Counted from the first letter of the stretch, positions 334 through 16,937 are shown. The stretch is DNA of 64,000 nucleotides from an uncultured Planctomycetaceae bacterium (GCA_963813715.1 CAWFAK010000007.1:352001-416000); one strand, 5' to 3'. Translations and numbers: made by a program. Notes: generated by a model not told the origin, from the letters alone.

Positions 334-1101
334 TCAACGCGCGTTGGCGGGTTGCTCGTAGTGGGCGAGAAAAGCGCGCGGCTGCGGCAGGTCGTTCCGA
401 ATCGCCAGCGCCTGCTTGAATTCCGCTTCGGCCTCGGCCTGGCGCTGGTGGGCTGCCAGGATTACGCCGACGTTCGAGTGGGCGGCTGCCGGACCTAGGA
501 CTTTGGCGAACGCTTCATAACTCTCTCGAAACCGTTCCTGTTCGCCGAGTGCCAGCCCCAAATTCACCCAGGCGCGTTCGTGCTCCGGCGATTGGGCGAT
601 CGCTTTGCGGAATTCTTCCTCGGCCTGGCGCCACTCGCGGCGGCGGTAATAGAAATAGCCGAAGTCGTTGCGCAAGTCGGCGTCATGCGGCGCGAGCTCC
701 AGCGCCTTGCGATACTCCGTGAGGGCCCGCGTGTCATTGCCCTGCTGGTCGTAAAGCACGGCCAAAAAGCGACTGACTTGCTGGTCTCTTGGGTTCAGCT
801 GACGCGCCCGCTCGTAAAGCAGGATCGCTTCCTGGGCGTCGCCGTGCGCTTGCAGCTCTTTGGCCGTCGCCAGACAAGCCTCGGCCGCCTGCTTCGGCGG
901 CAGTGTATCGGCTGGCGGCGACGCGGCGCCGGTCGGTTCGCTCGGCGCGGGATCGGCGAGACTCGCGGACGAGAGGACAGGCGCGGCGCATCCGCTCAAA
1001 CCGCCGAGAACAATCAAGCCGGCCACGCAGAGGGCAATCGAGCATGGCTTGCCCTTCACGTTCGCCTTGTTTCGTGCTGAACCAATCACGTCAGTGCTCA
1101 A
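334..1101 (-). CDS. tadD: TPR lipoprotein, TadD-like pilotin
   Basis: Lipobox LSGC, several TPR repeats (ALELAPHDADLRNDFGYFYY, AWVNLGLAL); last gene of the Tad operon. Confidence 0.7.
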   Translation of the reverse strand: MSTDVIGSARNKANVKGKPCSIALCVAGLIVLGGLSGCAAPVLSSASLADPAPSEPTGAASPPADTLPPKQAAEACLATAKELQAHGDAQEAILLYERARQLNPRDQQVSRFLAVLYDQQGNDTRALTEYRKALELAPHDADLRNDFGYFYYRRREWRQAEEEFRKAIAQSPEHERAWVNLGLALGEQERFRESYEAFAKVLGPAAAHSNVGVILAAHQRQAEAEAEFKQALAIRNDLPQPRAFLAHYEQPANAR

Positions 1102-1149
1102 GATGAATGCTCAATCTGAAGGCTCAATCTGACAGTTCAACCTAACAGC

Positions 1150-1773
1150 TCAATACATTCCCATTCCGCCGCCGCCTCCGCCGACGCCTCCGCCCACACC
1201 GCCACCGAAGGATGTTCCCGCGCCAAAGCCGGCGCTGCTTGCTCCGTAGCCACCGCCACCACCGGGTGCGAGGCCTGGCGAGGCGGGTGAGCGATTGCCC
1301 AGACGGACAGCCTCAGTGCCTTGAAGGCCCTCGGCTTCGGAGTATCCCAGAATGACGCGTCGTTCGGGGTCGGGCGCTCCCAGCGTCGCGAGATCGGCGA
1401 TCACCCGCTGCTTCCGCAGTTCGTCCAGTTTCGTATCAGTCGATTTTTCGACGATGACTGGAAATGGCACGCCGCCCAACTGCTGCGCGATCGCGTCGAC
1501 GTGCCGACGACCATCGGGGCCTAAGTGATCGCCTCCCTCGAACCATTCATATTGGTAGATCACGAACTTGTCTTGTTCGGCACGAAGCTTCTGCGCGGTC
1601 TGCCATTGGCAGGAATAAGTGCCCGGCGGCTGCGGAATGGCCCCTGGTGGGATGTCCGCGCAGCGATCCGTTGGGCAGACCCATCCGGTTTCGTGGCATC
1701 CGGCCGCCAGCACGATTGCGAGCAGGATCGTCAGCCAAGCGGATGACTGCATCGTTGAGTGAAGATTTCGCAT
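1150..1773 (-). CDS. Tad-associated hypothetical lipoprotein with Gly-rich tail
   Basis: ATG at 1773 after GGGGAG; lipobox LAAGC; C-terminal poly-Gly ending GMGMY; lies between the secretin and TadD. Confidence 0.7.
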   Translation of the reverse strand: MRNLHSTMQSSAWLTILLAIVLAAGCHETGWVCPTDRCADIPPGAIPQPPGTYSCQWQTAQKLRAEQDKFVIYQYEWFEGGDHLGPDGRRHVDAIAQQLGGVPFPVIVEKSTDTKLDELRKQRVIADLATLGAPDPERRVILGYSEAEGLQGTEAVRLGNRSPASPGLAPGGGGGYGASSAGFGAGTSFGGGVGGGVGGGGGGMGMY

Positions 1774-1781
1774 GGCTCCCC

Positions 1782-3987
1782 CTATTGTCCGTTCCATTGG
1801 GGCGCCGACATCGCCGGCGACGGGTTCGACTGGGGGGCCATCACGGGCTGCGGCAACTGGGTGCGACCGGTCGTGGAGATTTCGTCGGGAACGGGAACCG
1901 GCTCGATGCCCGGCACCGGACCGCAGGCGCCGCCCTGCGGACAACAGTTAAACGTCTGGCCGTGAGCGCCGATGATGAAAATGTCGTCGCAATGTTCGTA
2001 GCGTTTCTGCCGCGCACAATCGGTGCGAACCGAACTGCGGTAGTCGTAGCTGCGGCGGCTCTCCAACCGATTGAGCAGGTAGAACTCGACGTCTCCTGGC
2101 TCGAACACGTCGGCGCCTGGGAGCTGCGGCGTCGCGCAGGTTTGTAGCGGATGGACCAATTCGGGCGTAACGAGAATCACGATTTCTTGCTCGCCATGAG
2201 ACGATTGGTTCTCGCCCGCGAGCGGCCCCAGTAAGGGCAAGTCGCCGAAGAACGGCACTCGGGCCGTCGTGGCGCCGAGCGTGGTCTGTGTCAGCCCGGC
2301 GACGGCGAACGTCTGTCCGCCGCGTAGCTCGACCGTCGTCTGGAATGTGCGAGAGTTGAGACCAGGAACGCTGGTCCCGGCCGTGCCGGAGCCCGCGCCG
2401 ATGGTGGCGCCCAATCCCGGGTTGAGCGTGCTCACCGTCGCCCCGACCTGCAGCCGCACTCGGTCGCGGTCGGTAATGAACGGAATGAATTGCATCTGCA
2501 CGCCGAAGGGAATGAAGGCGACGCCTTGTGACGTCGCGCCGAAGGCGACGGCCGCTGCCGGCACCGGGAACTCGCCGCCCGCCTGGAATTGGGCCCGTTG
2601 ACCGTTGAGGGCCACAACATTCTGCTCGGCCAGCGACCGGGCGAGATTGAGATTTCGCAGAGCTTGGATGGCCAGCGTGACTTTGCCGTTGTCGATGATG
2701 GCGGGCAGGTTGCCGCCGATCAGCTGGGCCGTCGTGCCCATTCCGGTCACGGTTGTGGGGATCAGGCCGCCGGTCGTGTTGGAGAAGACTGCCGTCCCGG
2801 CGGCATTGAGGACGCTGAAATCGAGCCCGATGCTGCGAGCCGCCGTGCGGCTGACCTCGGCGACCGTCACGCGAAGCATCACTTGCTGCTCGCCGGGAAC
2901 GCGGAGCAGGTTGACGACGTTCCGGTTCACATCCCGCAGCAGAAAATTCTCGAGACCTTGCTCCGGCAAGTTTCCGTTCAAGTCCGGCACGGCCGTCACG
3001 TTAATGTTGCCGACGGGAATCTCCGCCGCACTGCGTTCCCGCTCTTGCGATCGCGATCCGCCGGGAGCGTTGGCGGAAACGACGCGGAGGATGTTGGCCG
3101 CATCGACAATATCTTTTGCCTCACCGCTGACGACCAGCTTGTCGCCCAAGAGCGCGAGGTGAACGACGCTGTTGGGGAAGGCCTTGTTGATCTCCTTTTC
3201 GAGCGCCTTGTAGACGCGCGTCCAAGCGCTCCTTTTGCTCCGGATCGGGAATGACGCGCACGAGATAGCTCAGCACCCGCGTCTGCCCCGTGGCGGCATC
3301 GTTGAACCACAGATTCAACACGCTGCTGCCGACCTGGTGGCCGGTGATCGAAAGCTCGGTGGGCGTGATGATCGTGTCGGACACGATCCTCGGATCGGCA
3401 ATCTGGGTGCGCAGCGGTGCTTGCTTGAGCACCAGCACGCGGGGCCGTCCGACGACGAGGTCCAGCGTGTTTTCCGGATCGATCGTCCCGGCCACGAACT
3501 CTTTGAATCGGTCAAGCGTCGCGGCCGAAGGACGCGGCGTCGCGCCCGAGGCTCCCAGCAAAGGAAGTCGCACTTGGCTCGGGTCAAAGGCGCCGGGCTG
3601 TGTGGCAGCCCCCTCCGCCGCACCCGGCATTGAGGGATTGGGGAGGACCGAACCGGGCTGAGTGATCGTTGGAGGAACGGACGGCGCCGGCTGATTCGCG
3701 TCGAGCTGGCTCACCGCGGCGAAAGGCGCGGATTGCGAGGGCGCCGGGGGGATCGGCTGCGGCTGAAAGGGGAGCGGAGAGGCCGCCGCGCCACGCGTTG
3801 AACCGGGGACAGCGGCAATTGTCGAGTTTGCCCCGCTCGAAGACCCCCAACCTTGCTGGCCGAGGGTCGTCGACGAGCCCGCGAACGCGCCCCAAACCCC
3901 GACAAGCGTTGCCCCGAGCAGCGCGTGACGCAATGCCCCGGAGGCACGATGCGGGAAATCAATTGTTCGTCGAAGTAGGTTTCGCAC
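1782..3987 (-). CDS. cpaC: Flp pilus secretin CpaC/RcpA (one frameshift near 3220)
   Basis: N-part has the T2SS-T3SS_pil_N-like segment (LDLVVGRPRVL...RTQIADP...ELSITGHQVGSSVLNLW); C-part has the secretin domain (QQVMLRVTVAEVSR, FQAGGEFPVP, VPFFGDLPLLG, EIVILVTPELV). GTG start at 3987 is inferred. Confidence 0.85.
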
Positions 3988-4187
3988 CGAGACGCCTGAC
4001 CAAATGGACTTGGGGAAGTCCCCCCGATTTGGCACTTGAGCCAAACTGTTGCTGCGTCGTGCGCCCGCGCCTGCGCGGGACCGCCCGGGTTGGTCAGACC
4101 GATGCAAGTAGACAAAGTATCGACCGGATAAGCGGGCGAACTTTTGCCGGTTTTGATGACATTTCCGATTGCGTCGTGGCGCCGACT

Positions 4188-4581
4188 CTAAGCCAGGAAG
4201 CGCACCGACTTCGGAAGTGGCCGACCCGTCGGACTTCGCGCGAAGCTGTGTCCCCGGGTCGAATTGTGGGCCGGGCGCGGCCATTTCCAGCACCGCGTGC
4301 GTGCCTCGCGGCGCGACAACTGCCCGCCAGGGTCGAACCCCTCGACGGACGGCAAGCACGCCGCCACTCTTGTCCAGCATGGCGAGATCGAGGGGAAACC
4401 GCAGGAAGCACGTATGGATCGAACCGCACGGAACGAGCAGCAGGCCACTTCCGACTTCGGGGGCCCGCCGGAACTGCCAGCCGACGAACCGCGACCAAAA
4501 GCGGTCGGCGATGTCGCAGTTTGCGACAACCACTCGACCCGTCGCGGCGTCGACGAGTTGCCACTCGCCTCGCGCGGTCAC
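4188..4581 (-). CDS. DUF192 family protein (end uncertain; reads in frame into the secretin)
   Basis: ADRFWSRFVG...GLLLVPCGSIHTCFLRFPLDLAMLD...AVLE motif typical of DUF192; nearest stop (TAG 4190-4188) is in another frame. Confidence 0.7.
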
Positions 4582-5492
4582 AGCGAGCGCCGTATGCTGA
4601 ACTGATCAGCCAGCCGGAAGAGGTCGTAGAACGCGGGCCCGAGCGTGAACAGGATGATCCCCGGCAAGAAGCAGATCACCAGTGGAAACAAGAGCTTCAC
4701 GGGCAAGGCCATCGAGAATTCCAGCGCTTTCTCCCGTCGGCGTTGCCGCAGGTCTTCGGCCTGGCTGCGCAGCACATCCGCGATGCCGGAGCCGATTTGC
4801 TCAGCTTGAACGAGAGCCGAGACCAAAATCGTGACGGAAGTCACATCGAGCCGCCTGGCGATGCGACGCAGGCATTCGACGCGAGGCCGACCGGCGAGCA
4901 CTTCGGCTTGGAACGTGCGGAATTCCTGCACGAGCGCGCGGTCGGGCGGGTTCGACCCGAGAATTCGATCGAGAGCCGCGTCAAATCCCAGCCCGGCCTC
5001 GGCCAGCGTCGCCAACAACTCGAGCGTGACTGGCAGGTCGCGTTCGACCTGGAGGACGCGAAGGCGGCGGACTCGGCGCACGAAGACCATCGGAATAAAC
5101 GCCACGAACAGCATCGCCAGATACGGGGCGATCAAGACGACGGGGTGCGCCAAGTTCTCGAATCCGCCCGGAATTTCTGCAATCGCCCGGTCGGCGGTCG
5201 CGAGCAATCCGCTTGCCCACGCGAAATATCCGAGCGTCCCACCAATCCCGAAGGCCACGAGGGTCGCAGCCACGAATCCGGCAACGGCGCCGGCGCGGCG
5301 GAAACCCGCGAATGCTAACCATTTCGTCAGAAATCCAGGGGTTGCCCGGACCGCAGCCATCGGTGGAGCGTCACCGGCATCGGACTGAAACAGGCGTCGC
5401 TGCACCTGCTGGCGCGCCGCAAAGTGTCGCACCAAGAGCGCAATCAGCACCAGCGCCACGAGCCAGGCCAGCGTTAATCCGTAAGTCAACAC
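4578..5492 (-). CDS. tadC: TadC / T2SS F-family membrane platform protein
   Basis: DLPVTLELLATLAEAGLGFDAAL, ALVQAEQIGSGIADVLRSQAEDLR, PVKLLFPLVICFLPG; start inferred at GTG 5492. Confidence 0.88.
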   Translation of the reverse strand: MLTYGLTLAWLVALVLIALLVRHFAARQQVQRRLFQSDAGDAPPMAAVRATPGFLTKWLAFAGFRRAGAVAGFVAATLVAFGIGGTLGYFAWASGLLATADRAIAEIPGGFENLAHPVVLIAPYLAMLFVAFIPMVFVRRVRRLRVLQVERDLPVTLELLATLAEAGLGFDAALDRILGSNPPDRALVQEFRTFQAEVLAGRPRVECLRRIARRLDVTSVTILVSALVQAEQIGSGIADVLRSQAEDLRQRRREKALEFSMALPVKLLFPLVICFLPGIILFTLGPAFYDLFRLADQFSIRRSL

Positions 5493-5518
5493 CGTGACAC
5501 TTCCATCGTGTTCGCGTG

Positions 5519-6385
5519 TTAGATCTTGCTGCGGGTGATCGAGGCGGACCAGGCGATGCCGACCGCCTGCAGCAACACCGCGGCGGCCACGCACCAACTG
5601 CCAACCTCGGTGGATAAGAAACCGATCATTCGGGGCGGGTCGTTGCTCCACATCAAGAGCGCGATGAAATAGGTGATGCCCATCACCGCGAAAATCGACA
5701 CCCGGGCCTGCGTGCTCATTGCCCGCATCCGGCGCGAGAGCTCGATGCGGTCGCGGATTGTGCGGCCAACCGTGGCCAGCGTCGGAGCCAGACTGCCGCC
5801 GACCTCCCAATGCACCGACAGTGCCGAGCAGAAGAGCAAAAACGTCTCGAGCGGCACGCGCTCGGTCAGGCTACGGAAAACGGTCTGCGGGTCGTCGCCG
5901 AAATGGATCCGCCCCGTGACTTCGTCGAGCTGCTCGCGGAGTGGCGGCCGGGACTCTTGCACCGCGCTCTCCAGCGCTTTCGTCAATCCGGCTCCGGCGC
6001 GGAGCGCCCCGACCATCAAGTCAATCGCGTCGGCCAGCTGCACTTCGATTTTTTGGACACGGCGTTCGGCCAGCATCGCTTCAATCTGCCATCCTAAGAG
6101 GCCGACGACGAGCCCGGCCGTCGCGCTATAAACAGGCCTGAGTCCGACCGCGAGCCAGAGCCCGCCGGCCACTCCCGCACCGATAAGCCAGGGGATTTCG
6201 TAGTAGCGGCGCGAGAACGGACGCGCCTGACGCAGCTCGATCGCCTCACCGTCGGCTTCGCTGGCCGCGGCAAATGCCTGGTCGAGACGCCGCCGGGAAA
6301 TGTTCTGCCGCCGGGCGTCAAGCCAGAGGTAAAAGATCGCCGCGGCAGCGGCGAGGAAGATGAGTGTCGAAAATGCCTCAGCCAT
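5519..6385 (-). CDS. tadB: TadB / T2SS F-family membrane platform protein
   Basis: QLADAIDLMVGALRAGAGL, EVGGSLAPTLATVGRTIRDR; ATG at 6385 overlaps the ATPase stop. Confidence 0.88.
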   Translation of the reverse strand: MAEAFSTLIFLAAAAAIFYLWLDARRQNISRRRLDQAFAAASEADGEAIELRQARPFSRRYYEIPWLIGAGVAGGLWLAVGLRPVYSATAGLVVGLLGWQIEAMLAERRVQKIEVQLADAIDLMVGALRAGAGLTKALESAVQESRPPLREQLDEVTGRIHFGDDPQTVFRSLTERVPLETFLLFCSALSVHWEVGGSLAPTLATVGRTIRDRIELSRRMRAMSTQARVSIFAVMGITYFIALLMWSNDPPRMIGFLSTEVGSWCVAAAVLLQAVGIAWSASITRSKI

Positions 6386-7832
6386 CGGTTCGCACGCGCG
6401 GCTTTTGAAAGATTTCCAGGGGAACGGGAATGTCGCGCTCGCGCAGGTCCTCCACAAAACGGGGCAGGATGCCGGTCGCCACAAATTCCCCCGCGACGCT
6501 CTTGCCGCGGCGGCCCCGCCGCTCGAAGCGGAAGACGTCTTGCATCTGAGGCGTGGGCCCCTCCATGCCGGTGATTTCCGCGATCGTTTCGACGCGACGG
6601 ACGCCGTCCTCATAGCGTCGCACGTGCACGACGAGATTGAGCGCCGAGACAACCTGCTCGCGAATGGCCCTCGAGGGAAGGTCGAGTCCCGCCATCGAGA
6701 CCATGGTTTCCAAGCGGGCAAGTGCGTCACGCGGACTGTTGGAGTGAATCGTCGTCAAGCTGCCGTCGTGGCCGGTGTTCATCGCCTGCAGCATGTCGAG
6801 GGCTTCACCGCCGCGGACTTCGCCGACGATGATGCGGTCAGGGCGCATACGCAGGGCGTTGATCACCAAGTCGCGAGCCGTGATGCGGCCCCGGCCTTCG
6901 ACATTCGGAGGCCGCGTCTCCATCCGGACGACGTGTTCCTGATCGAGCATCAACTCGGCCGCGTCCTCGATGGTGACCACGCGCTCGTTGTTGGGCACCG
7001 CTTCAGCGACCGCGCCGAGGAATGTCGATTTCCCGGCCCCGGTGCCGCCCGAGATCAACAGGTTCTTGCGGAGCCGCACGGCAAATTGCAAACACGTCAA
7101 CATGTCCGGAGAAAACATCCCAAGCTGCATCAGGTCGTCGCAACGAAGCCGGCGCCGACCGAAGCGGCGAATCGAAAGCGTCGGGCCGTCGAGTGTCACG
7201 GGCGGAAGCGTGGCGTTCACGCGGCTTCCGTCGGCCAATCGCGCGTCGACCATCGGCGACGTTTCATCGATCCGCCGCCCGACTCGGGCCGCGATTCGCT
7301 GGATGATCCGCACGAGGTGATCGGTATCCCGAAAGCGGACTGCCGTTTGCTCGAGCTTACCGAACCGCTCGATGTAAACCTGGTCGTAGCGGTTGACGAG
7401 AATGTCGGTCACCGCTGGATCGGCCATCAACGGCGCGAGCGGTCCGACCCCGAGCGTCTCCTCCAAGAGGTCGTCGGCGAGTCCGCGGCGCTCGGCCTCA
7501 TTCAGTGGGACGTCTTCGGTCGCCAGCACGCGTTCGACGAACGCTCGGACCTCGGTCTCCAGGTCGGCTTCGCTCGCCCCCAGCAAGCCGCGCTCGTTGA
7601 TCTCATCCAGTAGGCGCTGGTGCAGCTCACCCTTGACCGAGAGGTGCTCCGCATAACCGGACCGTAAGGGGGGCGGCTCGGCGCGGACCGGCTCTCGAGC
7701 CGCGGTGGTCCCGGGGCGCTCGACCTTGATCCGCGACTTGGGGACGATATGCGTCGCGCGTGTTAACACAAGCCGCGACCGCACGCGAGCCTCGGTCTCG
7801 GTCGGTGCTGTCGGCTCTTCGTCAGGCGTCAT
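6378..7832 (-). CDS. cpaF: Tad pilus assembly ATPase CpaF/TadA
   Basis: Walker [48 protein letters not shown]. Confidence 0.95.
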
Positions 7833-7844
7833 ACGGAATTCCCA

Positions 7845-9054
7845 TCACGCGTGCGGCTCGGACTCGGCCGTGTCGCCGCGCGCCGCTTTGCCGTTAAGTT
7901 CCGGCGAAGTGATCGAGAGCACCTCGTCGACAATTTCATTCAGCCGGGTGGCGCAGCGCGAGAGGGCCCATCCTCGTCCGACATACGGACGACCGAGGTT
8001 CGCGGCCGCGATTAGCCCGCGGCTATAGGGCACAACATGGTCGACGTCGCGACCGAGCCTGAGGGCGACGTCGCTGGGCTTCAGGCAGCCGCTGTGCCGC
8101 ACGTAGCGGTTGATGACGATGCGTTGTCGGTTTCGCGGGAAGCCGACGGCATCGAGCAGCGTCAGGAGTTTCGCAATTCCCAGGAGGGTCGGCACTACGT
8201 TCTCCAGCACAACGTAGGCCTGATCGCACGAATCGACGACGGCCATCGCCACGCCGTCAAACATCGGGAAGGTGTCGACAATCACGTAGTCGTAGGCTCG
8301 CCGCGACAGAGTCAGCACGCGCGAGATCAGATCGTCATCGACCTCGGCCGCGACCATAGCGTCCGGAGGAGCGGCCAAGAGATGCAGCCCCGACGAATGG
8401 GGCGTGGCGAGTTGACGAATGAGCATCTCGTCGAGCCGATCCCGCTCGCGGGCCGCGTCTGTCAGGGTGAGCGCCGGTTCCAGGTCCAGCAGCGCCGCGC
8501 ATACCCCCATCTGCAGCGACGTGTCCACTAACAGCACCCGCTCCGGATAGCGACGTGCCAGCCCGAGCGCAGTGTTAACCGCCAGCGTCGACTTGCCGAC
8601 GCCTCCTTTGTTACTGATAAAAGTCACGACCTTGCCCCAACGAGCGGGTCCGCTCGCCGCTTGGCGCCGGAAGCGCTCGATCAGCTGTCCCAGATCAACC
8701 GCGGAAATCGGACGGCGCAGAAAATCCCGAACGCCCAACCGCAGGGCTTCGATCAACAGGGCGCTTTCCGAGACGTCGTGTCCGAATAGTTCGGGGCGAA
8801 ACGCGGCCGCCGCGAGTGTCTCGGGCGAGACGGCGGCGATATCGGTCACGACGGCCTTCAGTCGCGACGAGATCCGAACCCATTTCAAGAATCGCCAGTT
8901 GCGGCCGCCGGCTCCGCGCGAGCTCGACGGCTTGCCGCGCGTCGGTCGCGCGGAGCAGCACCAGCCCCTCGGCCTGCGACCCCAGCGCCGCCTCGCACTC
9001 CGAGGTCACCTGGGGATCGGTGCCGACGATCAGAATTTGGAAAGGGCCGGGCAT
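7845..9054 (-). CDS. cpaE: CpaE/TadZ: receiver-like domain plus MinD/ParA-type ATPase (frameshift near 8870)
   Basis: N-terminal receiver-like segment (ORF 8695-9054) continues into KGGVGKSTLAVN, YDYVIVD (ORF 7845-8888). Confidence 0.88.
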
Positions 9055-9060
9055 TGGACT

Positions 9061-10610
9061 TTAGGGCTCGAAGTTCGGACCGAGATAGTGATTGGCGAGT
9101 GCTGGGGACAACAGGGACGCGGTCAGACCGACGTTTTCGTCGAAGAGTTGCTGAATGGTCGCCTGCCCAGCCAGTTGCAGCGCCTGTGGCAGAGCGGCGC
9201 ACGAGCGACGCGGAGGCATTCTCCGCGGCAATCCGATCGGCGGGCGCATTCTGGACGGTGTTCCACGGGGCAGTCAGTGACAACTGGCCCGTCGTGTAGG
9301 TCCACTGCACGAAGCCAAAGCCCACGATCGTCCGGGGCGTCGTCCCGATCGTGTCGTAAATCGGCACGTAAACATATAAGGTCGGCGCGACGCTCAGGGA
9401 CGAATCGCTGCCCGCTCCCGTATAAGTCTGGCCAACTGTCGTGAGCTGGCTGAAATTGGCGCCGACGATGCCTGCTTCCGTCGCGTTTGTGTTTGCGGTT
9501 CCGATGGGCGGCGCGAGGTTCGAGGTAATGACACCGGTAGCCGGGTTGACCGTTGCGGTATCGGTCCCGTTACTTGCGTTCGTCGCGTTGTTGAGACTGG
9601 CCCAATAGGTCGCCGTCAGCCCAAAGGGGGCGACGCCGCGAATCCCGTTCGTCGAATCCACGGCCCCGACCGACAACACGTGGCCAATTGTCGTCGTGGG
9701 CGTGCTCCCCGCCTGCGGTCGCAAGGGAATCGTACCGGCCGCGGCGATTGCCGTCGCGCGAACGGTAATACCCGACTCGACCGTCAAGCCACCGGTGCTC
9801 GACGAGCGGGCGAGCATTGAACCTCGGCCGAAGAGGAAGGTGATGGCCGGTCCGTTCGATGCCGTGCCGGTCGACGCCATGAAATCCTCGTTCGAACGCC
9901 TTAGTCGAGCGAGAAATCCTGTCTGAGTCGCGCGTACCGGTCACAGAACCCGGAGTAAAATCGCGGCGCGAGTAGTCGCTGCTTTCGTCGGCGGTCGCCG
10001 TCGGCGCATCGTAGGACGCATTCCAACCGTAGGCGCCGGACACCAGGTCCCCGTTGGGCGTGTTCGTCGTGTTGGGCTGCAGCGTCGGCTTGTAAACCGG
10101 CGGCCCCTCGGACGGCAGAGTGATCATGCCGGACAACTGATCGCCCATTGTGTTGGTGACCGAGGCGACGGGACCCGCCCCAAATTTCTGCAAGTCGCCG
10201 TTGGCCGGATTGAGATCGTCGTCGAAAGTGACGCGACACCAGGTTGCTCGCGGCGAAGCGTCGTGCGCCGTCGATCCAGGTCTGCCACGCGGGATTGGTT
10301 GGGTCGTACGGCGTGTTGGGTTGGGGGCCAACCTGATTGGTGAGAGCCTGCGGCAGGTTGGGGGGGGTGGTCCCATTCGGTCGCCAGGCTGCCGGCAGGT
10401 CGTCCCGGAAGCGCAGTCCATCGCGAGCGGCGCTATCTGCCGCGGTCTGCATTTGCATTTGAGTCAGCCGCGCCACGCCCATGTCGGCGACGAGCCCCGC
10501 GATGGCAAACGCCGCGAAGAGAAAGAACGCGAAAAAGACGAGCACGTTGCCGCGTCGTGCGCGGCAGTGCGGACGACCGTCGGTTTAAGTCGGTTGGGTG
10601 TGGTCGGCAT
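9061..10610 (-). CDS. TadG-like Tad-domain pseudopilin/adhesin (four frameshifts near 10560, 10235, 9935, 9200)
   Basis: RRGNVLVFFAFFLFAAFAIAGLVADMG...QMQTAADSAA Tad motif, then a Thr/Gly/Asn-rich extracellular part spread over ORFs 9570-10421, 8885-9880 and 9061-9249. Confidence 0.75.
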
Positions 10611-10618
10611 CGCTGAGA

Positions 10619-11638
10619 TCACTGGCCTTTGGCTCCCGTCAGGTTGTCCCAAAGGGACCCGCCCGATTTTCGTGCGCTCTTAGCGAACGGCTGCACGGGC
10701 CTCGCCGCGGTGTGGCGAGAATAGTCGGGGAGCACGACTGATTCGCGCTTGTCGCCCGAGATCGCATCGATTGTGGCGATGTTCGCCAGCGGGTTGGATT
10801 CGACAGTTGCGATGCCCGGATCACCGGGCTGACCCGACCGCACCACGCAACTGATCGCGACGTCGGTGCTCAGCGCCTCTTGAATCGGCGCCACTTCTGC
10901 CGGATCGACAGCGATGACGACTTCCTCGACCGGCACCTTCTTGACAAACGATCCCTGACTGAGCGTGCGGGAGGTAATCGACTTGTCATGCTGAGTGAAT
11001 TCAATCAGGACGGCATTCTTGGCGAGCACCCGCACACGGGCCAGTTTTTCCATCTGGGCGATTTGCGTCTGCTGCATCAAGCCCTTCGACAGATTCCCGC
11101 TGCCCCTGGGCGCTTCGACGGGGACTGTGGCAGTCAGGTCGATGCGGTCTTGCTGCTCGAGGCCGGCGATGCCCTGAATCTTCGTGCGCTCGAGTGTCAA
11201 TGAGACCTTTCCCGGAGGAATCGCTCCGGACATGCCCGCCCGCGTCCCCTTCGGGAAGAAATCGCGCTCCGTGAAGAGGTATCGCGGGCCCTTGTCGTGG
11301 TTCAGCACGCGGCCGATCACCTCGTTCGTACTGAGCATGGCTTCCTTGGGGATTTCGCCCTCCGGGACCGGGACGAAGGCCCATTTCCCGGTTCTGGGAT
11401 CGATCAGATGGTCGCGCGTGATCTTCGTGTAAGCAGGGATCTTGGTCCAGCTGGCCAGAACCGGCACGTGACCCGGAGGAAGCTGGTCGCGATGAGAAAA
11501 CCAGGCTACGGGATCGACCTTTCCAAACGCCCAGAGCGTGCCCACGGTCCCTGCGGCAGCTAGCGGGACGAACAAACAGATCAACACGACGACAATCCAG
11601 CGCGAGGAACGCTGCGCGCGGGAGCGGGCGTAGGGCAT
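10619..11638 (-). CDS. cpaB: CpaB/RcpC (SAF domain) pilus assembly protein
   Basis: N-terminal TM, SAF-like IPAYTKITRDHL, AIPPGKVSLTL, GIAGLEQQDRIDL, VRVLAKNAVL. Confidence 0.75.
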   Translation of the reverse strand: MPYARSRAQRSSRWIVVVLICLFVPLAAAGTVGTLWAFGKVDPVAWFSHRDQLPPGHVPVLASWTKIPAYTKITRDHLIDPRTGKWAFVPVPEGEIPKEAMLSTNEVIGRVLNHDKGPRYLFTERDFFPKGTRAGMSGAIPPGKVSLTLERTKIQGIAGLEQQDRIDLTATVPVEAPRGSGNLSKGLMQQTQIAQMEKLARVRVLAKNAVLIEFTQHDKSITSRTLSQGSFVKKVPVEEVVIAVDPAEVAPIQEALSTDVAISCVVRSGQPGDPGIATVESNPLANIATIDAISGDKRESVVLPDYSRHTAARPVQPFAKSARKSGGSLWDNLTGAKGQ

Positions 11639-11707
11639 GGTTCACCTCTTACGACGTGATCGAGCAAAAGTGGATTTGATCAAGATGGGAATTCATTGTT
11701 TGGCGCG

Positions 11708-12703
11708 TCAGGGACCAAAAACCTCGCGACGGATCACCGCCTGCGCGGACATGACGCGGCGAAAGGGCCGCACGGTTTGCAGGTAAAGCCCCATTTCGCC
11801 CATCCCGTAAGTGCCGCCGTACGGACCGGCGTAAGCGGCGCCCCCTTGGTTGTCGGGGGGCGGCGGATCGGGCGCGACGGGCGTGCCGCCTCCCGGAATC
11901 GCGTTCGTCGCCGTCACACCTGCGTCGTCGGCGAGCATGGGACTGCCGGCGGTCGGCTCCGCTTCGCCGTTGGCATCCAGCGCGGCCGGTTGATAGCCGG
12001 CCATCGTCGCAGCCTGAAACGGATAATTCAGCCGGACGGCAACCACCCCTCCGGGCATTCCGGACGGAGGCGTCGAGGCGACGCTGAAGGCTCCGTTGCC
12101 ATTGGAATCGGTGATCTCTTCCAAGACCGCGTGCCACTCGATCGTCTCCGGCCCCACGCCGGACGGGCTGACGACGAGCGGAACGGCCACCGTAAAGCCG
12201 CTGTAGCCGGGCTTGGGGGTTGTGGAAGTGCTCGTGATCAGGGCGCCGGGATAGCGCAAGAGCGGAACGCCGCCGACTGTGTCGGAAATCATCATCGGCA
12301 AGAGCGCCTGGTTCACCGACGGCAGCGTAATCCCTTGGGCGGCGAAGAAGTCGAAGATCGACTGGCCCGACTGCATGGCGCTGAGGTTGATCGCCAGATA
12401 ATTCGGATCGTAGACGCCGTCGATCACCTGCTGGTTGGCGAGTGCGTCGGCGAACGTGGCGGTCGAGGGCAACGGCACGCGGGACAATTCGCGGGCCGCC
12501 ACGTCGACCGCGGTTTGCAGCGTTTGCGTCCCGGTGAAGAGCCGACCGAATTCGACGATGGCCACGACAAGCAGGTAGATCACAAGGAAGATGAGCGCGA
12601 ACTCGAGCACAGCCTGGCCGCGGCGCCGAGTCGATTTCGCGTGTGCTTTGGCCACGCCGGTTTTTGGCAACCGGCGTGACGGCTCTTCACAACACCGACG
12701 CAT
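11708..12703 (-). CDS. TadE-like pseudopilin (alternative start GTG 12655)
   Basis: RRRGQAVLEFALIFLVIYLLVVAIVEFGR...AVDVAARE prepilin/TadE motif; long C-terminal domain. Confidence 0.85.
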   Translation of the reverse strand: MRRCCEEPSRRLPKTGVAKAHAKSTRRRGQAVLEFALIFLVIYLLVVAIVEFGRLFTGTQTLQTAVDVAARELSRVPLPSTATFADALANQQVIDGVYDPNYLAINLSAMQSGQSIFDFFAAQGITLPSVNQALLPMMISDTVGGVPLLRYPGALITSTSTTPKPGYSGFTVAVPLVVSPSGVGPETIEWHAVLEEITDSNGNGAFSVASTPPSGMPGGVVAVRLNYPFQAATMAGYQPAALDANGEAEPTAGSPMLADDAGVTATNAIPGGGTPVAPDPPPPDNQGGAAYAGPYGGTYGMGEMGLYLQTVRPFRRVMSAQAVIRREVFGP

Positions 12704-13115
12704 GATGCCAAAACTCCAAACGGACCAGGTAAGCCAAGAGACCGATTGCGATGGCGGGGACGTAGGCCAGATCGCGACGCCCGCGAATCACCGCGACGAG
12801 CGCCAGCACACCTCCCGATAGCGCGACCCAAAAGAGGGCCGACAAGAGCGCGAGCGGGCCGAGGGCCGCGCCCAGCGCGACAACAAGCTTGACGTCGCCG
12901 CCGCCGAAGCCGCCGAGAGCATAAAGCGGAAGCGTCAGCGCGAGGCCGAGCCCGGCTCCTAGCGCAAGTCCCGCCCACGTGACCTCCGTGAAGCCGGCCG
13001 CGATCGCCGCGACCGCGCAAACGACGAGCGCGGCCCCGATCCAGTCGGGCACCTCGCGCCGTCGCAGGTCGTAAACGGTGGCGACCAGGGTCAGTCCGAT
13101 CGCGATGAAAATCAT
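12687..13115 (-). CDS. cpaA: Prepilin peptidase CpaA/TadV (A24 family)
   Basis: YDLRRREVPDW and GGGDVKL aspartate motifs, LAYVPAIAIG. Confidence 0.9.
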   Translation of the reverse strand: MIFIAIGLTLVATVYDLRRREVPDWIGAALVVCAVAAIAAGFTEVTWAGLALGAGLGLALTLPLYALGGFGGGDVKLVVALGAALGPLALLSALFWVALSGGVLALVAVIRGRRDLAYVPAIAIGLLAYLVRLEFWHHASVL

Positions 13116-13154
13116 GGTGTTGCTTGGGTTGCAGATGCGGTCACGTCGCGGAGA

Positions 13155-13182
13155 CTCCCTGCGCCGACGGAGGCGCAGGGAG
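13155..13182 (-). terminator. Perfect 11-bp stem-loop after the pilin gene
   Basis: ctccctgcgcc-gacgga-ggcgcagggag, 27 nt past the flp stop; no U-tract, so a pause or stability hairpin is more likely than a strong terminator. Confidence 0.6.
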
Positions 13183-13209
13183 CCCGGTCAGGACGCGAAG
13201 GGGGTTACG

Positions 13210-13572
13210 TCATTGCGACTCGATAATCGTGCCACCGAGTCCGTTCGTCGCGTTGGGCGATTGCGCACCGTAGAGGTTGGTGCCGAGCCGATCCGTGCCG
13301 TCGTTGGCGAGGATCCCGACCGTGCTGACCTCGATCGCCTTGCCGGTCAGTCCGCCCGAAGTGTCGGTTTCAATCAAGTGGCCGCTGGTAATCGGGTTGT
13401 TGTCATCCTGATGAGCACCGGGCAGCAGGACGGCAGCCGCGTCCATCAGATCCGAGGTCTTGTGGCCGAGCAAGGAAATGCCAACCAGTGACACGATAGC
13501 GATGCCGGAGACGAGTAGGGCGTACTCAACGAGCCCCTGACCTTTGCGATCACGTGCGAGTCTGCGAAACAT
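13210..13572 (-). CDS. flp: Flp (type IVc) pilin with C-terminal extension, 120 aa
   Basis: RKG|QGLVEYALL prepilin cleavage site with the EY motif and hydrophobic helix; ATG at 13572 after GAAAGG. Confidence 0.88.
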   Translation of the reverse strand: MFRRLARDRKGQGLVEYALLVSGIAIVSLVGISLLGHKTSDLMDAAAVLLPGAHQDDNNPITSGHLIETDTSGGLTGKAIEVSTVGILANDGTDRLGTNLYGAQSPNATNGLGGTIIESQ

Positions 13573-13916
13573 GAGAGCACCTTTCGAGGGAAAAGGAACC
13601 AAGGATGCAGGAAGAAGAACTAGGACGCGGATATCGTTAAAACCGTCTCGCCTCCGCCGCGATTTCGGCGCGGGGCTGCGGTCTGACCAACCATTCGCCT
13701 CGCGCTAGGCGCACACGGAGACGAGAACGGCGTTGCAGCAATGGTCTCGGTACGCGGCCGTTGATGAGTCAGTCGACGCAGACCGAAGCGACGACTAGCT
13801 GCCGGAGGCGGGGAGTCCCCTGAATCTCCGGATCCCACTCAATTCGCGCAACAGCAATCGCAATTGATCTGCGCGAAGCAACGAACCTTCAGTGGGTGTG
13901 CCGCGACAAGAGAGCG

Positions 13917-14285
13917 TCAGGCGCAGGGAGGCGGACGCGGACCCGCAATGCCGAGGGCAAAGACTGCCACGATCGGCGGGAAGAAATGCGGCGGCGCGGG
14001 TACGACGGCTTGAGTCAGCTCGCTGCCGGCGATGGTCGCCGCAATCTGACCTTGCGCCTGGAACTGGCAAATCGGGCAAGTGTCGGCATCGTGGGCATAG
14101 TCGACAGCGTCCGCCCGAAGGGCAGTCGACGGATCACTGGCCGGCACTGCCTCAGAGGCGATGGCACGCACCGCATGCTCGTGCTCGCAGCCCAACAGCT
14201 CATGCAGGCCCGGCCCCAACAGCATCATCCCCGTGTAGAGGACGAGCATGCCGGCTACGAAAGCTCGTTTCGGGCGAACCAGCAT
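13917..14285 (-). CDS. DUF2946/CruR-like leader protein (candidate metal-sensing arrest peptide)
   Basis: Hydrophobic N-terminus, HELLGCEHEH, HDADTCPICQF (CxxC), C-terminal GPRPPPCA-stop. Confidence 0.75.
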   Translation of the reverse strand: MLVRPKRAFVAGMLVLYTGMMLLGPGLHELLGCEHEHAVRAIASEAVPASDPSTALRADAVDYAHDADTCPICQFQAQGQIAATIAGSELTQAVVPAPPHFFPPIVAVFALGIAGPRPPPCA

Positions 14286-14313
14286 CGGGCAGAATCCACC
14301 AAAAATGCCGCGG

Positions 14314-14348
14314 CGCAACTCAATCGCAAGCGCAACTAAGTTGCGATT
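14314..14348. promoter_or_regulatory. Fur-family-type operator: perfect 7-1-7 palindrome plus a degenerate tandem copy
   Basis: CGCAACT-A-AGTTGCG at 14331-14345; CGCAACT-C-AATCGCA at 14314-14328. Confidence 0.7.
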
Positions 14349-14374
14349 ATGGAAACACTCCTTTGCGTTGTCAA
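14346..14374 (-). promoter_or_regulatory. Sigma70 promoter for the leader and Tad operon
   Basis: Minus strand TTGACA (14374-14369), 17-nt spacer, CATAAT (14351-14346). Confidence 0.75.
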
Positions 14375-14571
14375 CGAGATTCGGGGACGGTCTCGATCAA
14401 TTTGTCGCAAGTTTTTCTGGAGCAATCTTGCGGCAAATTCATCGAAAGTGCCAAGGCGAGCGCCGTTTGCTAAACTGCATGGCGACCAACCATTCGAAGA
14501 CCTGCCTCCGCGAGCGATCACCGACCGTCCGCGGGTAGCCGGGCCTTCGCCGTTCGACAAAAAGCGGTCTC

Positions 14572-15015
14572 ATGACATCCACCAAAGCCAGTGGTGAGCG
14601 CGAGGCGCTGTGCGCTCGCATGCAGGAATTCGGTCTCCGCTGTACGGCCGCGCGGCTCGCGGTCCTGGGAGAATTGCAACGCTCGACGAGTCCGCAGAGC
14701 CACGCGGACATCGCCCGAGCGCTCGCCCCTTTGGAACTCGACCGCGCGACGGTTTATCGCAATTTGATGGAGCTGAGCGAATCCGGCCTCGTGTCGCGAC
14801 TCGACTTGGGCGACCACATCTGGCGATTTGAGCTGCGGAAAAACGGCCAGGGCGACCTGGCCGAACACGCCCATTTTCTCTGCACCGAGTGTGGTCAGGT
14901 CTCCTGCCTCGACGGCGTCGAAATTCGTGTCACTCCGACCCCGCGGCGCAAACGCTCGTCGCTCGGCAACGTCACCGAAATCCTGCTCAAGGGCCGGTGC
15001 GTGCGTTGCTCCTAA
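14572..15015 (+). CDS. Fur-family metalloregulator (possibly Zur-like)
   Basis: GLRCTAARLAVL, DRATVYRNL helix-turn-helix, HAHFLCTECG and GRCVRC Cys pairs. Confidence 0.92.
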   Translation: MTSTKASGEREALCARMQEFGLRCTAARLAVLGELQRSTSPQSHADIARALAPLELDRATVYRNLMELSESGLVSRLDLGDHIWRFELRKNGQGDLAEHAHFLCTECGQVSCLDGVEIRVTPTPRRKRSSLGNVTEILLKGRCVRCS

Positions 15016-15228
15016 GGAGCACGTCAGCAGTTGGTTGGCCAATGCTGCTCAGCGATCGCAGCCTTCGATGACGTTGGATTTTCCCGAATTGATCCGAATC
15101 TGAATCTCAATCCAGATTCGACCTTTGTCAGAATCCCTGCTCCGGGATCTCGGCGGCAGCCGAATCTGCCTCAGCCGCGAATCAAGCGACTCGAGCAGCC
15201 GAAAGTTTCCGATTGACGCCGGCCAAGA

Positions 15229-16593
15229 TTACCACCGGAGAATTACGTCCGTGGCGACTGTGAACAGGCTGTGCTTGTCCTCGAAAGGACGGGAGTCTGC
15301 GTTGTAGTCGTAACGCAATTCCGGCCGCACGACGATCCACTTCCAAGGCTTGAACGACAAGCCCGCGGTCAAGTCGGTGTAAAGGCCGGCGAAGCCGGTG
15401 CGTTGCCCCTGCTCGTCGTCAAAGAATTCCAGTCGCGTGGTGCCGCTCAGCCGCGGCGAGAACTCGTAGATCAAATAGTTCGGGAAGCCGATCCAAGTGG
15501 CCGTGCCAATGTTGGGAACGTCGGTCGTCAGGCCGAACAGGCTCTCGAAGTTGTACGTCAGCTTATTGCTGAATTTGTGCGTGTAGACCAGATCGAGCAC
15601 CTCGGGGTTGTCGTGATTGTAGGCTTGTAGGTAGCGACCCGAACCGAGAATCACGTTGAACAACACGCTGTCGTTTTGATCCTTTGAGGTCCATTTCACG
15701 CTGCCGATGAACGTCGGGGTGGCCGCTGGATCGATGAAGACGTCGCTGCCCGTCACGAGCCCGGCCTGCAGGGTCCAAGCGTCGGAGAGCTTGGTCGTCG
15801 TCAAAATGCCGGTGTGCGTAAACGGATCGTACAGGTCGGTGTAGGCGTGTGAGAACAGGGGCGTGTTGATCGTGTCGGTCGTCTCCACGCCATACTGCGA
15901 AAAGAAGTGCCCAATCTTCACATCCATGCCTTGGGCGATGCTGGGAAAATAGGCCTCCCCATAGAACTGGATCGGGTCGATTCCGTAGAGGTTCGGACCG
16001 CCGTGATCGTCAGTGAGCTGTCCGCTGAAGAGTCCTCGCGCCAGCGTGAACCGATAGTCTGATCCAGGCAGAATGGTGTCGGACCGGAAGCCAAAACTCG
16101 AGTCACTGCTGTTCGTATCAACGGGCTGATCGATGCGCAACCAGTTTTGATCGAGCAAGAAGTTGTTTGCCAGATAGTTGAAACCCAGAGGCAAATTGAT
16201 GCTGCGGTCCGTGCTGCCGGTAAAGGACATATCGGTCCAGCCGTAGATCTGGATCCGGTTGTCGGCGAGAAACGAGCCAAGCGAGGTTCCCCGGAGGGAG
16301 CGCATCAAGAGCCATTCGTCCGTGGCGGGTTCGGCAGGCGGAGCGGAGGTTGGTGCGTCGGGATTTGCAGGCGCTTGGGCCTGAAGTGACGCGACCGCCG
16401 ACTCCAGCGAAATCTGCGTTACCGGAAGCGCCGAATCGCTTTGATCCGATCCGCCGTCGCGATCCTCGGCCGGCAAGAGCCTGGGTCCGCAGGCCAGCCA
16501 GGCGCCGAGAAGAGCGCGCAGGATGAGACGGCGCACGGCCGGTCGATCATGACGGCTTTGAAACACAACGAAGATATCGGTTGCCCGCTGCAC
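15229..16593 (-). CDS. Outer-membrane beta-barrel porin (BBP2/DUF1597-like); start uncertain
   Basis: IQIYGW, KIGHFFSQYGVE, FSHAYT...PFTHTG, RLEFFDD, RPELRYD, C-terminal Trp. Confidence 0.85.
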   Translation of the reverse strand: MQRATDIFVVFQSRHDRPAVRRLILRALLGAWLACGPRLLPAEDRDGGSDQSDSALPVTQISLESAVASLQAQAPANPDAPTSAPPAEPATDEWLLMRSLRGTSLGSFLADNRIQIYGWTDMSFTGSTDRSINLPLGFNYLANNFLLDQNWLRIDQPVDTNSSDSSFGFRSDTILPGSDYRFTLARGLFSGQLTDDHGGPNLYGIDPIQFYGEAYFPSIAQGMDVKIGHFFSQYGVETTDTINTPLFSHAYTDLYDPFTHTGILTTTKLSDAWTLQAGLVTGSDVFIDPAATPTFIGSVKWTSKDQNDSVLFNVILGSGRYLQAYNHDNPEVLDLVYTHKFSNKLTYNFESLFGLTTDVPNIGTATWIGFPNYLIYEFSPRLSGTTRLEFFDDEQGQRTGFAGLYTDLTAGLSFKPWKWIVVRPELRYDYNADSRPFEDKHSLFTVATDVILRW

Positions 16594-16937
16594 GCCGCCC
16601 CACCATGCGGAGCAACGATTGACGGCTCTTGGCGAGCCTTTGACCGGTCCAACGGCCCTCGGGTCAGCGCAATCGTCATAACCGGAGCATCTTTAAAAGC
16701 CTTCGGACGTTCGTGAGAACGACCAGGGGCCGCAATCGCAGTCACTCGACAAGACTAGCTCCATTTGCAGTCGTCACGGACCCGCCCAAATGACGACTTT
16801 TCGACAATTGGCGGGTTTTCGGCAAACCCTCCTGGAACGTGCCCCCGGGGCCTTATTAGTCTGACCTTTATCGCCCGAAAGCGCCGCAACTTGCGGACGA
16901 TGCATTGAGCCCGGTTGTTGCGCGACAGGAGGCCCTT

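Follow-up and report, generated by a model that had tools for sequence, protein, structure and literature searches.

A conserved Fur-family regulator and leader-peptide cassette in front of a Tad/Flp pilus operon of an uncultured planctomycete: a candidate for two-layer metal-responsive control

A stretch of 64,000 nucleotides from an uncultured Planctomycetaceae bacterium (GCA_963813715.1 CAWFAK010000007.1:352001-416000), referred to here in its whole length as the window, carries a complete Tad/Flp pilus operon of 14 genes (334-13602, minus strand). Directly upstream of it, and in the same direction, lies a gene for a small leader peptide (13917-14285), and a gene for a Fur-family regulator stands divergent from the leader. 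The question raised by this locus is whether the pilus genes are controlled by metal supply through these upstream parts, or whether regulator, leader and pilus genes are only neighbours. Our answer, held with a probability of about one half, is that a cassette with two metal-responsive layers stands at the head of the operon. The window belongs to a genome (G000) of 7.49 Mb and 82.6% completeness from a soil planctomycete. The initial annotation had described the co-directional Tad set behind the leader, a sigma70 promoter with a perfect palindrome and the divergent regulator; this description is correct in every part, because the Tad set, the leader, the promoter with its palindrome and the regulator were all confirmed. 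The parts of the cassette and of the region before the pilus genes are as follows, in window positions.

14572-15015, plus strand: Fur-family gene, 147 amino acids, divergent from the leader; match to PF01475 of 51.7 bits against a cut-off of 23.1
14484-14496, minus strand: first copy of a 13-mer, CGAATGGTTGGTC, 76-88 nucleotides upstream of the fur start codon
14346-14374, minus strand: leader promoter of the sigma70 type, TTGACA-17-CATAAT, 11 of 12 matches
14331-14345, unstranded: perfect 7-1-7 palindrome CGCAACTTAGTTGCG (CGCAACT-T-AGTTGCG), abutting the -10 hexamer; presumed Fur-family operator
14314-14328, unstranded: imperfect second repeat adjoining the palindrome, TGCGATTGAGTTGCG on the minus strand
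13917-14285, minus strand: leader open reading frame (ORF), 122 amino acids, DUF2946/CruR-like; CPIC occupies residues 70-73, and R117-P-P-P120 stands before C-A-stop
13859-13873, unstranded: operator-like sequence …TTGCGATTGCTGTTGCGCG… in the leader-flp spacer, three mismatches to the palindrome; weak evidence
13642-13731, minus strand: composite hairpin of 33 bp, with a U-run at 13638-13641 and a second copy of the 13-mer in its apex (13685-13697)
13210-13569, minus strand: flp, a long Flp-type pilin of 119 amino acids; weak Pfam matches (Class_III signal, E 0.0017; Flp_Fap, E 0.0099)
334-13115, minus strand: Tad machinery block after flp, with the same gene order in congeners

Conservation of this arrangement was examined in 100 further genomes of the family. 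Among them, the congener G062 alone yielded the leader, and there fur, leader, flp and the Tad genes have the same layout. Because the leader protein was not found in the other 99 genomes, wider synteny was taken from alignment-based scans, which gave seven loci in genome contigs and 12 in metagenome contigs. Several of these loci are redundant, L062 being the locus of G062 and L069 almost the same sequence as the window. A divergent fur gene is present at five of the seven genome loci (L060-L063 and L065) and at all seven metagenome loci whose upstream DNA is long enough; in the other five it is shorter than 380 nucleotides. The flp and Tad genes lie downstream at five of the seven genome loci (L060 and L062-L065) and at six of the eight metagenome loci that reach far enough. 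Two further arrangements occur. In L061, L070 and L071, fur, promoter, palindrome, leader and hairpin are kept and a gene of the DUF1559 plus N-methyl (type IV pilin-like) class comes next; in L066, an N-methyl pilin gene comes next, followed by T2SSE and T2SSF genes. The Fur gene, the promoter with its palindrome, the leader and the hairpin recur as one conserved cassette, and wherever the DNA extends far enough to show the gene behind it, that gene is a pilin gene. The synteny of regulator, leader, flp and Tad, which the initial annotation had proposed to test across Planctomycetota, holds within this clade. The homologous Tad loci in other genera of the family lack the leader and carry a different palindrome.

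The leader promoter is the only sigma70-like site found in the region 13000-15400, where shuffled sequences gave 0.3 on average, and the scan of this region placed none between leader and flp. Across 17 homologous loci with at least 140 nucleotides of upstream sequence, the promoter hexamers are kept in 14 while the spacer between them diverges. The palindrome is retained with at most one mismatch in 13 of these loci and with two or three mismatches in three. In the remaining locus, L064, it has decayed to six mismatches with the promoter hexamers intact, and an IS200-like transposase gene (L064:9134-9997) stands in place of fur. Within the window, sites with up to three mismatches are not above chance (six found, shuffled mean 3.98); in the whole genome the exact 15-mer has two copies and there are two further sites with one mismatch, with none for a reversed control. 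The real support for the palindrome lies in its conservation across loci while the promoter spacer diverges. The adjoining repeat resembles, by eye, TGCAATTGAnTTGCAAT motifs upstream of ZIP genes beside Fur orthologues in other genera, and TTGCGAT within the operator-like sequence of the spacer is partly conserved among relatives. The box, CGCAACTnAGTTGCG, is GC-rich and unlike the classical Fur or Zur boxes.

The only other promoter-placed box, TGCAACTGAGTTGCA, lies elsewhere in the genome directly after ATAAT and about 45 nucleotides upstream of a paralogous leader (G000:C9:245222-245689; L081:2023-2489). This paralogue is a Cys/His-rich protein of 135 amino acids with CFAC and a terminal RGPPA-stop at a spacing of 43 amino acids, and DUF58-type genes lie downstream of its cassette. 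Apart from this box, the other exact or one-mismatch sites, which had been considered as possible marks of zinc genes, fell inside ORFs or at unrelated places. The other exact copy (G000:C15:112700-112714, L002) lies inside an ORF with a Cys/Pro-rich, secreted-looking start (…CCGFYDCPRCCPPCGCCCTPPC…) and is probably there by chance, but this ORF is odd in its own right.

The Fur-family protein bears two C-terminal CxxC pairs (CTEC and CVRC), and solved structures of Fur and PerR are among its relatives (E 1.6e-8). Its gene is the only one in the 82.6%-complete genome with a PF01475 match above the cut-off, the second match scoring 22.3 bits and falling below it. Homologues occur in 59 of the 100 other family genomes with varying gene neighbours; in seven other genera a His-rich ZIP transporter gene adjoins the Fur orthologue. 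A tree of 41 rows unites the fur genes that adjoin leaders in a single clade (99/99) within a family-wide clade that includes the ZIP-adjacent genes; high-scoring segment pairs shorter than 110 amino acids or weaker than E 1e-8 were left out of this tree, which removed one paralogue, that at the end of the Tad locus of G089. Our best guess is that the regulator is probably Zur-like, because its clade often adjoins ZIP zinc transporters. Upstream of ZIP genes beside the Fur gene designated Fur-A in other genera, TGCAAT repeats form a shared motif, noticed by eye and only a lead. On its other side, fur of the window is convergent with a BBP2/OmpL-like porin gene, which is followed by an HlyD/CusB-like membrane-fusion gene (region 15229-18401); the porin gene is also beside fur in L069.

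The leader is the first gene of the series and is separated from flp by a spacer of 345 nucleotides. Its sequence includes LHELLGCEHEH, HDADTCPICQFQAQGQ and, at the C-terminus, GPRPPPCA. Twenty-five homologues were retrieved from 5.8 billion proteins; each has about 120 amino acids and is annotated as hypothetical. In the alignment of the resulting 26 sequences, H28, C33, C70, P71, C73, Q74, F75, P116, R117, P119 and P120 are invariant, so that the CxxC of C70 and C73 is present in 26 of 26, and position 118 is P or G; a hydrophobic N-terminal stretch, AFVAGMLVLYTGMMLLG, is conserved in the family. The distant homologue in L066 (41% identity) carries a literal RAPP. The spacing from CxxC to the arginine is 43 amino acids in the leader, as in the C9 paralogue, and 42 in L066 (counted by hand), at the edge of the published range.

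These features can be compared with those of CruR (Bp2923) of Bordetella pertussis, a DUF2946 upstream ORF that controls bfrG and has 45 ± 1-2 residues between its CxxC and its arrest motif (PMC9426467). As in CruR, a short ORF comes first and bears a CxxC and a C-terminal R-x-P-P, the presumed arrest motif, spaced by 43 rather than 45 amino acids; its hydrophobic N-terminal stretch may correspond to the export signal of CruR. Both are also followed by a long intergenic spacer, and CruR acts after transcription initiation, as the leader would. The differences are that the motif is RPPP or RGPP instead of RAPP, that the genes downstream encode a pilin and pilus machinery instead of a TonB-dependent transporter or copper proteins, and that a presumed Fur-family operator layer and a long, sequence-conserved hairpin in the spacer are added.

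The spacer from leader to flp includes a block of about 100 nucleotides whose conservation exceeds that of the coding sequences, and this block folds into the hairpin. The hairpin begins about 185 nucleotides past the leader stop codon and ends about 70 nucleotides before the flp start codon, and it is found in G000, in L060-L065 and in 10 of the 12 metagenome loci, the contigs of the remaining two stopping inside the leader. The predicted fold has -52.1 kcal/mol (z = -3.16), with two of 200 shuffled sequences folding as well. Over 12 distinct sequences, 99.5% of the pair cells hold standard pairs, compared with 36-53% after sliding of the partners; in three pairs both sides have changed (eight cells), and none of 500 shuffles reached the observed covariation score. 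This covariation gives moderate support for the structure and not proof, because the sequence diversity is low and the sequences are related. Mean column identity is 88%, and the apex is invariant. A permissive Rfam search of 13000-15400 matched no family. When the spacers behind the L066 leader and the C9 paralogue were folded, neither showed a homologue of the hairpin. At flp, the Shine-Dalgarno region is overlapped by a small conserved stem, CCUUUU/AAAGG.

Parts of the stretch are present in four metatranscriptome runs. One contig (X1 record 2) covers 13035-14522, from cpaA through flp, the hairpin and the leader to 150 nucleotides beyond the promoter; two others cover the flp start with the hairpin (X4 record 23, 13506-13778) and the 3' end of the leader with the spacer (X2 record 10, 13849-14130). 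These contigs carry no strand information, have a depth of 2-6 and are uncontrolled for DNA carry-over; they are compatible with read-through from leader to flp and cannot prove a single transcript.

In the mechanism that these parts suggest, the first layer would be a metal-loaded Fur-family repressor, probably Zur-like, occupying the palindrome, which would overlap the point where transcription from the near-consensus promoter starts, and transcription would begin only under metal scarcity. In the second layer, by analogy with CruR and CutF, the exported nascent leader would sense metal through its CPIC and His/Cys motifs, and stalling of the ribosome at the C-terminal RPPP would decide whether transcription passes through the 345-nucleotide spacer, hairpin included, to reach flp and the Tad genes. 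Of the possible polarities, the most coherent would be that of CruR, in which arrest without metal guards against premature termination and metal relieves the arrest and so leads to termination. With this polarity the two layers would agree, both turning the operon on under metal scarcity. What the sequences show are the parts, their joint conservation and their constant position before a pilin gene; that the repressor binds, which metal acts, that the peptide arrests, that transcription reads through and in which direction the system responds is what we infer. Induction by metal limitation and a role of the pilus in metal scavenging or mineral contact, both proposed in the initial annotation, we likewise purely infer, and its interpretation as a whole is partly supported.

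Several observations weigh against this mechanism, and a number of them fit a rival explanation, in which the Fur gene, the promoter, the leader and the hairpin form a self-contained, monocistronic metal-homeostasis unit. In that case the leader would act as a small membrane protein of the Cys/His kind, the hairpin would serve as its intrinsic terminator, the Tad genes would be expressed from a promoter of their own, and the adjacency would descend from an ancestral arrangement in which Fur and ZIP genes stood next to Tad. The hairpin with its U-run, which the initial annotation had passed over, resembles a terminator. It may simply terminate a monocistronic leader transcript, because the U-run follows it and it sits about 185 nucleotides past the leader stop; the U-run is UUUU in seven of the 12 distinct sequences, the others having the weaker CUUC, AUUU or UUUC instead, and a simple terminator scan, which counts at most 20 pairs and loops of 3-8 only, did not call the hairpin. 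It keeps its place when the downstream gene is of the DUF1559 type instead of flp, as in L061. A homologue of flp occurs in 12 of the 100 other family genomes, with the leader in the congener alone, and therefore flp can run from its own promoter; the homologous flp genes in other genera run from promoters with a different palindrome. Moreover, G005, G040 and G089 have Fur-A at a distance of 2-10 kb from flp but no leader, and for this reason the adjacency of Fur and flp could be inherited synteny. The RNA contig that spans the region overshoots the predicted promoter by 150 nucleotides, and the C content of the spacer is unremarkable (55 C to 52 G in 178 nucleotides).

The explanation by mere adjacency has, on the other side, to account for a pilin gene as the next gene in all three arrangements, including the distant L066, which chance adjacency would not predict. 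The sequence conservation of the hairpin, with its invariant apex, also far exceeds what a terminator needs, and the DUF2946 genes known so far stand first in their operons and exert control in cis (PMC9426467; PMC9973294). Two weak points go in the same direction, namely the lack of promoter-like sites between hairpin and flp in the scanned region and the RNA contigs that bridge this gap. We regard this explanation as the main rival, a serious possibility that is nevertheless less probable than the two-layer cassette.

Further points against metal-responsive control concern the identity of the regulator and of the leader. No NCBIfam equivalog cut-off was reached by the Fur protein, the Zur model giving 17.5 bits against 167, and a Leu stands at the alignment position of the N-terminal regulatory His of PerR. 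A perfect palindrome at -10/+1, a PF01475 protein and the divergent arrangement are shared with the Fur/Zur systems that use 7-1-7 boxes; one difference is that zinc specificity would here follow from the ZIP neighbours of the orthologues alone. The initial annotation had proposed a scan for the palindrome at znuABC or COG0523 genes; at the two ZIP genes of the genome no box was found, and the best matches there have six and four mismatches and lie within the background of 2000 random 550-nucleotide segments, znuABC and COG0523 genes being outside the search. Since these ZIP genes have no box while the second promoter-placed box heads the paralogous leader, the detectable regulon of the regulator would seem to consist of arrest-peptide cassettes. 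One of the ZIP genes (G000:C17:441500-446000, L085) is divergent from an ArsR-type regulator gene, which is itself followed by a CDF cation exporter gene; this is a separate zinc module without the palindrome.

The leader, for its part, scores below the Pfam threshold for DUF2946 (PF11162), with 16.6 bits at E 0.014, and 20.2 bits in the congener, against a gathering cut-off of 23.7. The alignment is nearly of full length (23-117 of 117), and 21 of the 26 family members match at E of 0.1 or better, the best at 8.7e-5. The assignment as a DUF2946-type leader thus holds for the CxxC, the C-terminal R-x-P-P and the spacing but not for formal family membership, and the peptide is best filed as a divergent relative that may function like CruR and CutF from below the membership threshold.

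The geometry of the spacer bears on another possibility, that of translational control of the type described for CutF, in which stalling on the leader would melt a stem-loop that masks the flp ribosome-binding site. The exported CutF sensor of Rhodobacter capsulatus (cutFOG; PMC9973294; 10.1101/2025.02.05.636593) is similar in being DUF2946-like, with a Cys motif, a C-terminal PPP stall motif and a stem-loop before its target. The PPP stalling motif, present in the leader as in CutF (10.1101/2025.02.05.636593), and the conserved stem over the flp Shine-Dalgarno region would fit such control. However, the CutF stem-loop masks the next ribosome-binding site in a short spacer, while the hairpin of the window is 185 nucleotides from the stop codon and off the flp ribosome-binding site; a ribosome stalled on the leader cannot reach it or the flp-proximal stem, and the authors restrict the unmasking mode to short spacers (PMC9973294). 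The target of CutF is, in addition, a copper enzyme, which flp is not. Because of this arrangement of hairpin, leader and flp, control of the CutF type is disfavoured and we consider it very improbable.

The 13-mer CGAATGGTTGGTC occurs exactly twice in the 7.49-Mb genome, upstream of fur and in the hairpin apex, and thus both times in this locus. Both copies are conserved in relatives, and a fur transcript would carry the complement of the upstream copy. It is conceivable, though unlikely, that the hairpin acts as a regulator, either by base pairing of its apex CGAAUGGUUGGUC with the complementary 13-mer of the fur 5' leader or because a single protein binds the two copies in the DNA. Feedback between the Fur-repressed transcript and fur expression would be the result, and this would be compatible either with the two-layer cassette or with mere adjacency. 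RyhB acts on fur in Escherichia coli, and the logic would be comparable. The helix that bears the 13-mer (helix 3) is weak and has two G-U pairs, and L064, which has no fur, carries an altered 13-mer in its hairpin, a T-to-C change with a pairing-compatible change in the partner. On the other hand, the fold of the fur 5' region is not significant (z = -0.32), the 13-mer is partly paired inside the hairpin, and the change in L064 is a single case.

Returning to the two-layer cassette, a broader picture may be drawn only tentatively, and we would sooner doubt it than rely on it: in a clade of soil Planctomycetes, a peptide of the CruR/CutF type would have been redeployed from metal transporters to surface filaments, the cassette would gate three classes of pilin, pilus production would be a read-out of periplasmic metal, and pairing of the hairpin apex with the fur 5' leader would provide an RNA feedback onto the repressor.

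The Tad loci of other genera give a further indication on the role of Fur-family proteins. In G005 (L054/L055), G040 (L056/L057) and G089 (L058/L059), the Tad locus ends with a highly divergent second Fur paralogue after tadE, tadG and orf331. Exact TGCACANNNTGTGCA sites, counted genome-wide, are all inside Tad loci in G005 (3 of 3), G040 (4 of 4) and G060 (4 of 4; G060:C24 and G060:C35), and in G005 and G040 they lie upstream of flp, cpaB, tadE or the Fur paralogue; G089 has none and G000 has one unrelated site. This pattern points to a putative Tad-dedicated Fur-family regulator with its own operator. Because these sites and the Fur paralogues sit in Tad loci, Fur-family control of Tad may be general in the family, operating through different paralogues and operators, and this possibility raises the prior for a metal-gated pilus. 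In the Tad locus of G005, a Cys/His-rich membrane ORF, which by eye looks MerC-like, lies between the second flp and cpaA, and a His-rich ZIP transporter gene is divergent from flp and convergent with Fur-A (ORF and ZIP gene are covered by L055:3768-4409 and L055:6110-7201).

The genes of the Tad operon behind flp, identified with Pfam unless another basis is given, are the following.

12687-13115, minus strand: A24 prepilin peptidase, cpaA
11708-12703, minus strand: TadE
10619-11638, minus strand: RcpC/CpaB, E 4e-4, under the cut-off
9901-10545, minus strand: Tad/TadG-like protein
8885-9880, minus strand: ORF of 331 amino acids (orf331), no assigned family
7845-8888, minus strand: ParA-like CpaE
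6378-7832, minus strand: CpaF ATPase (T2SSE)
5519-6730 and 4578-5810, minus strand: T2SSF platform proteins, tadB and tadC
3121-4581, minus strand: fusion of DUF192 and a pilus-N domain (pilN)
1782-3149, minus strand: secretin
1150-1944, minus strand: lipoprotein ORF, by its LAAGC lipobox
334-1101, minus strand: TPR protein/TadD, with an LSGC lipobox

The gaps between the genes of the operon are at most 94 nucleotides, and the component set of a Tad/Flp type IVc pilus is present with Flp, A24, CpaF, two TadB/C proteins, CpaE, secretin and minor pilins. The Pfam matches of Flp and CpaB are weak; nevertheless, the gene order and the G/xxxxEY motif, visible in Flp as KG|QGLVEY, are there. Compared with Caulobacter cpa and Aggregatibacter tad, the set is equally full (Flp, A24, TadE/G, CpaB, CpaE, CpaF, TadB/C, secretin and TPR lipoprotein), and the differences are the long Flp, the DUF192-pilN fusion and the regulation. 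Directly past the flp stop codon, a GC-rich stem-loop of 11 bp (13155-13182) is kept in the congener; stem-loops of this type are often found 3' of pilin genes. A PGAH(D/Q)DD motif, seen by eye, is common to long Flp pilins across genera (13390-13420 in the window, about residues 50-57 of Flp; also L055 and L057) and could be a metal- or Ca-binding site.

The claim of the initial annotation that no Tad system wired in this way has been described agrees with the literature searched. Papers on DUF2946 and copper, Tad pili, Planctomycetes, and Fur and iron contained no report of a Tad or other pilus locus under DUF2946 or Fur/Zur control, with the proviso that the CutF neighbour table may list pilin neighbours; in the legend of Fig. 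7B of that paper, one signal-peptide class of the CutF-like proteins and those encoded downstream is called 'PILIN' (PMC9973294). In the CruR supplementary tables searched, 'Planctomyc' occurs six times and pilus terms do not occur (PMC9426467). In the literature consulted, the characterised or catalogued targets of DUF2946 arrest peptides are metal-homeostasis genes. Gating by metal supply is not known to have been described for any pilus.

DUF2946 arrest peptides are a recently described device for sensing extracytoplasmic metal. A pilus as target, if the two-layer control is true, would link metal availability to adhesion and surface behaviour and would widen the reach of this device. The hairpin with a 13-mer duplicated at fur is in itself an undescribed RNA or DNA element. 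To our knowledge, almost nothing is known of pilus regulation in Planctomycetes, and the cassette, if it works as proposed, would provide an entry point to it.

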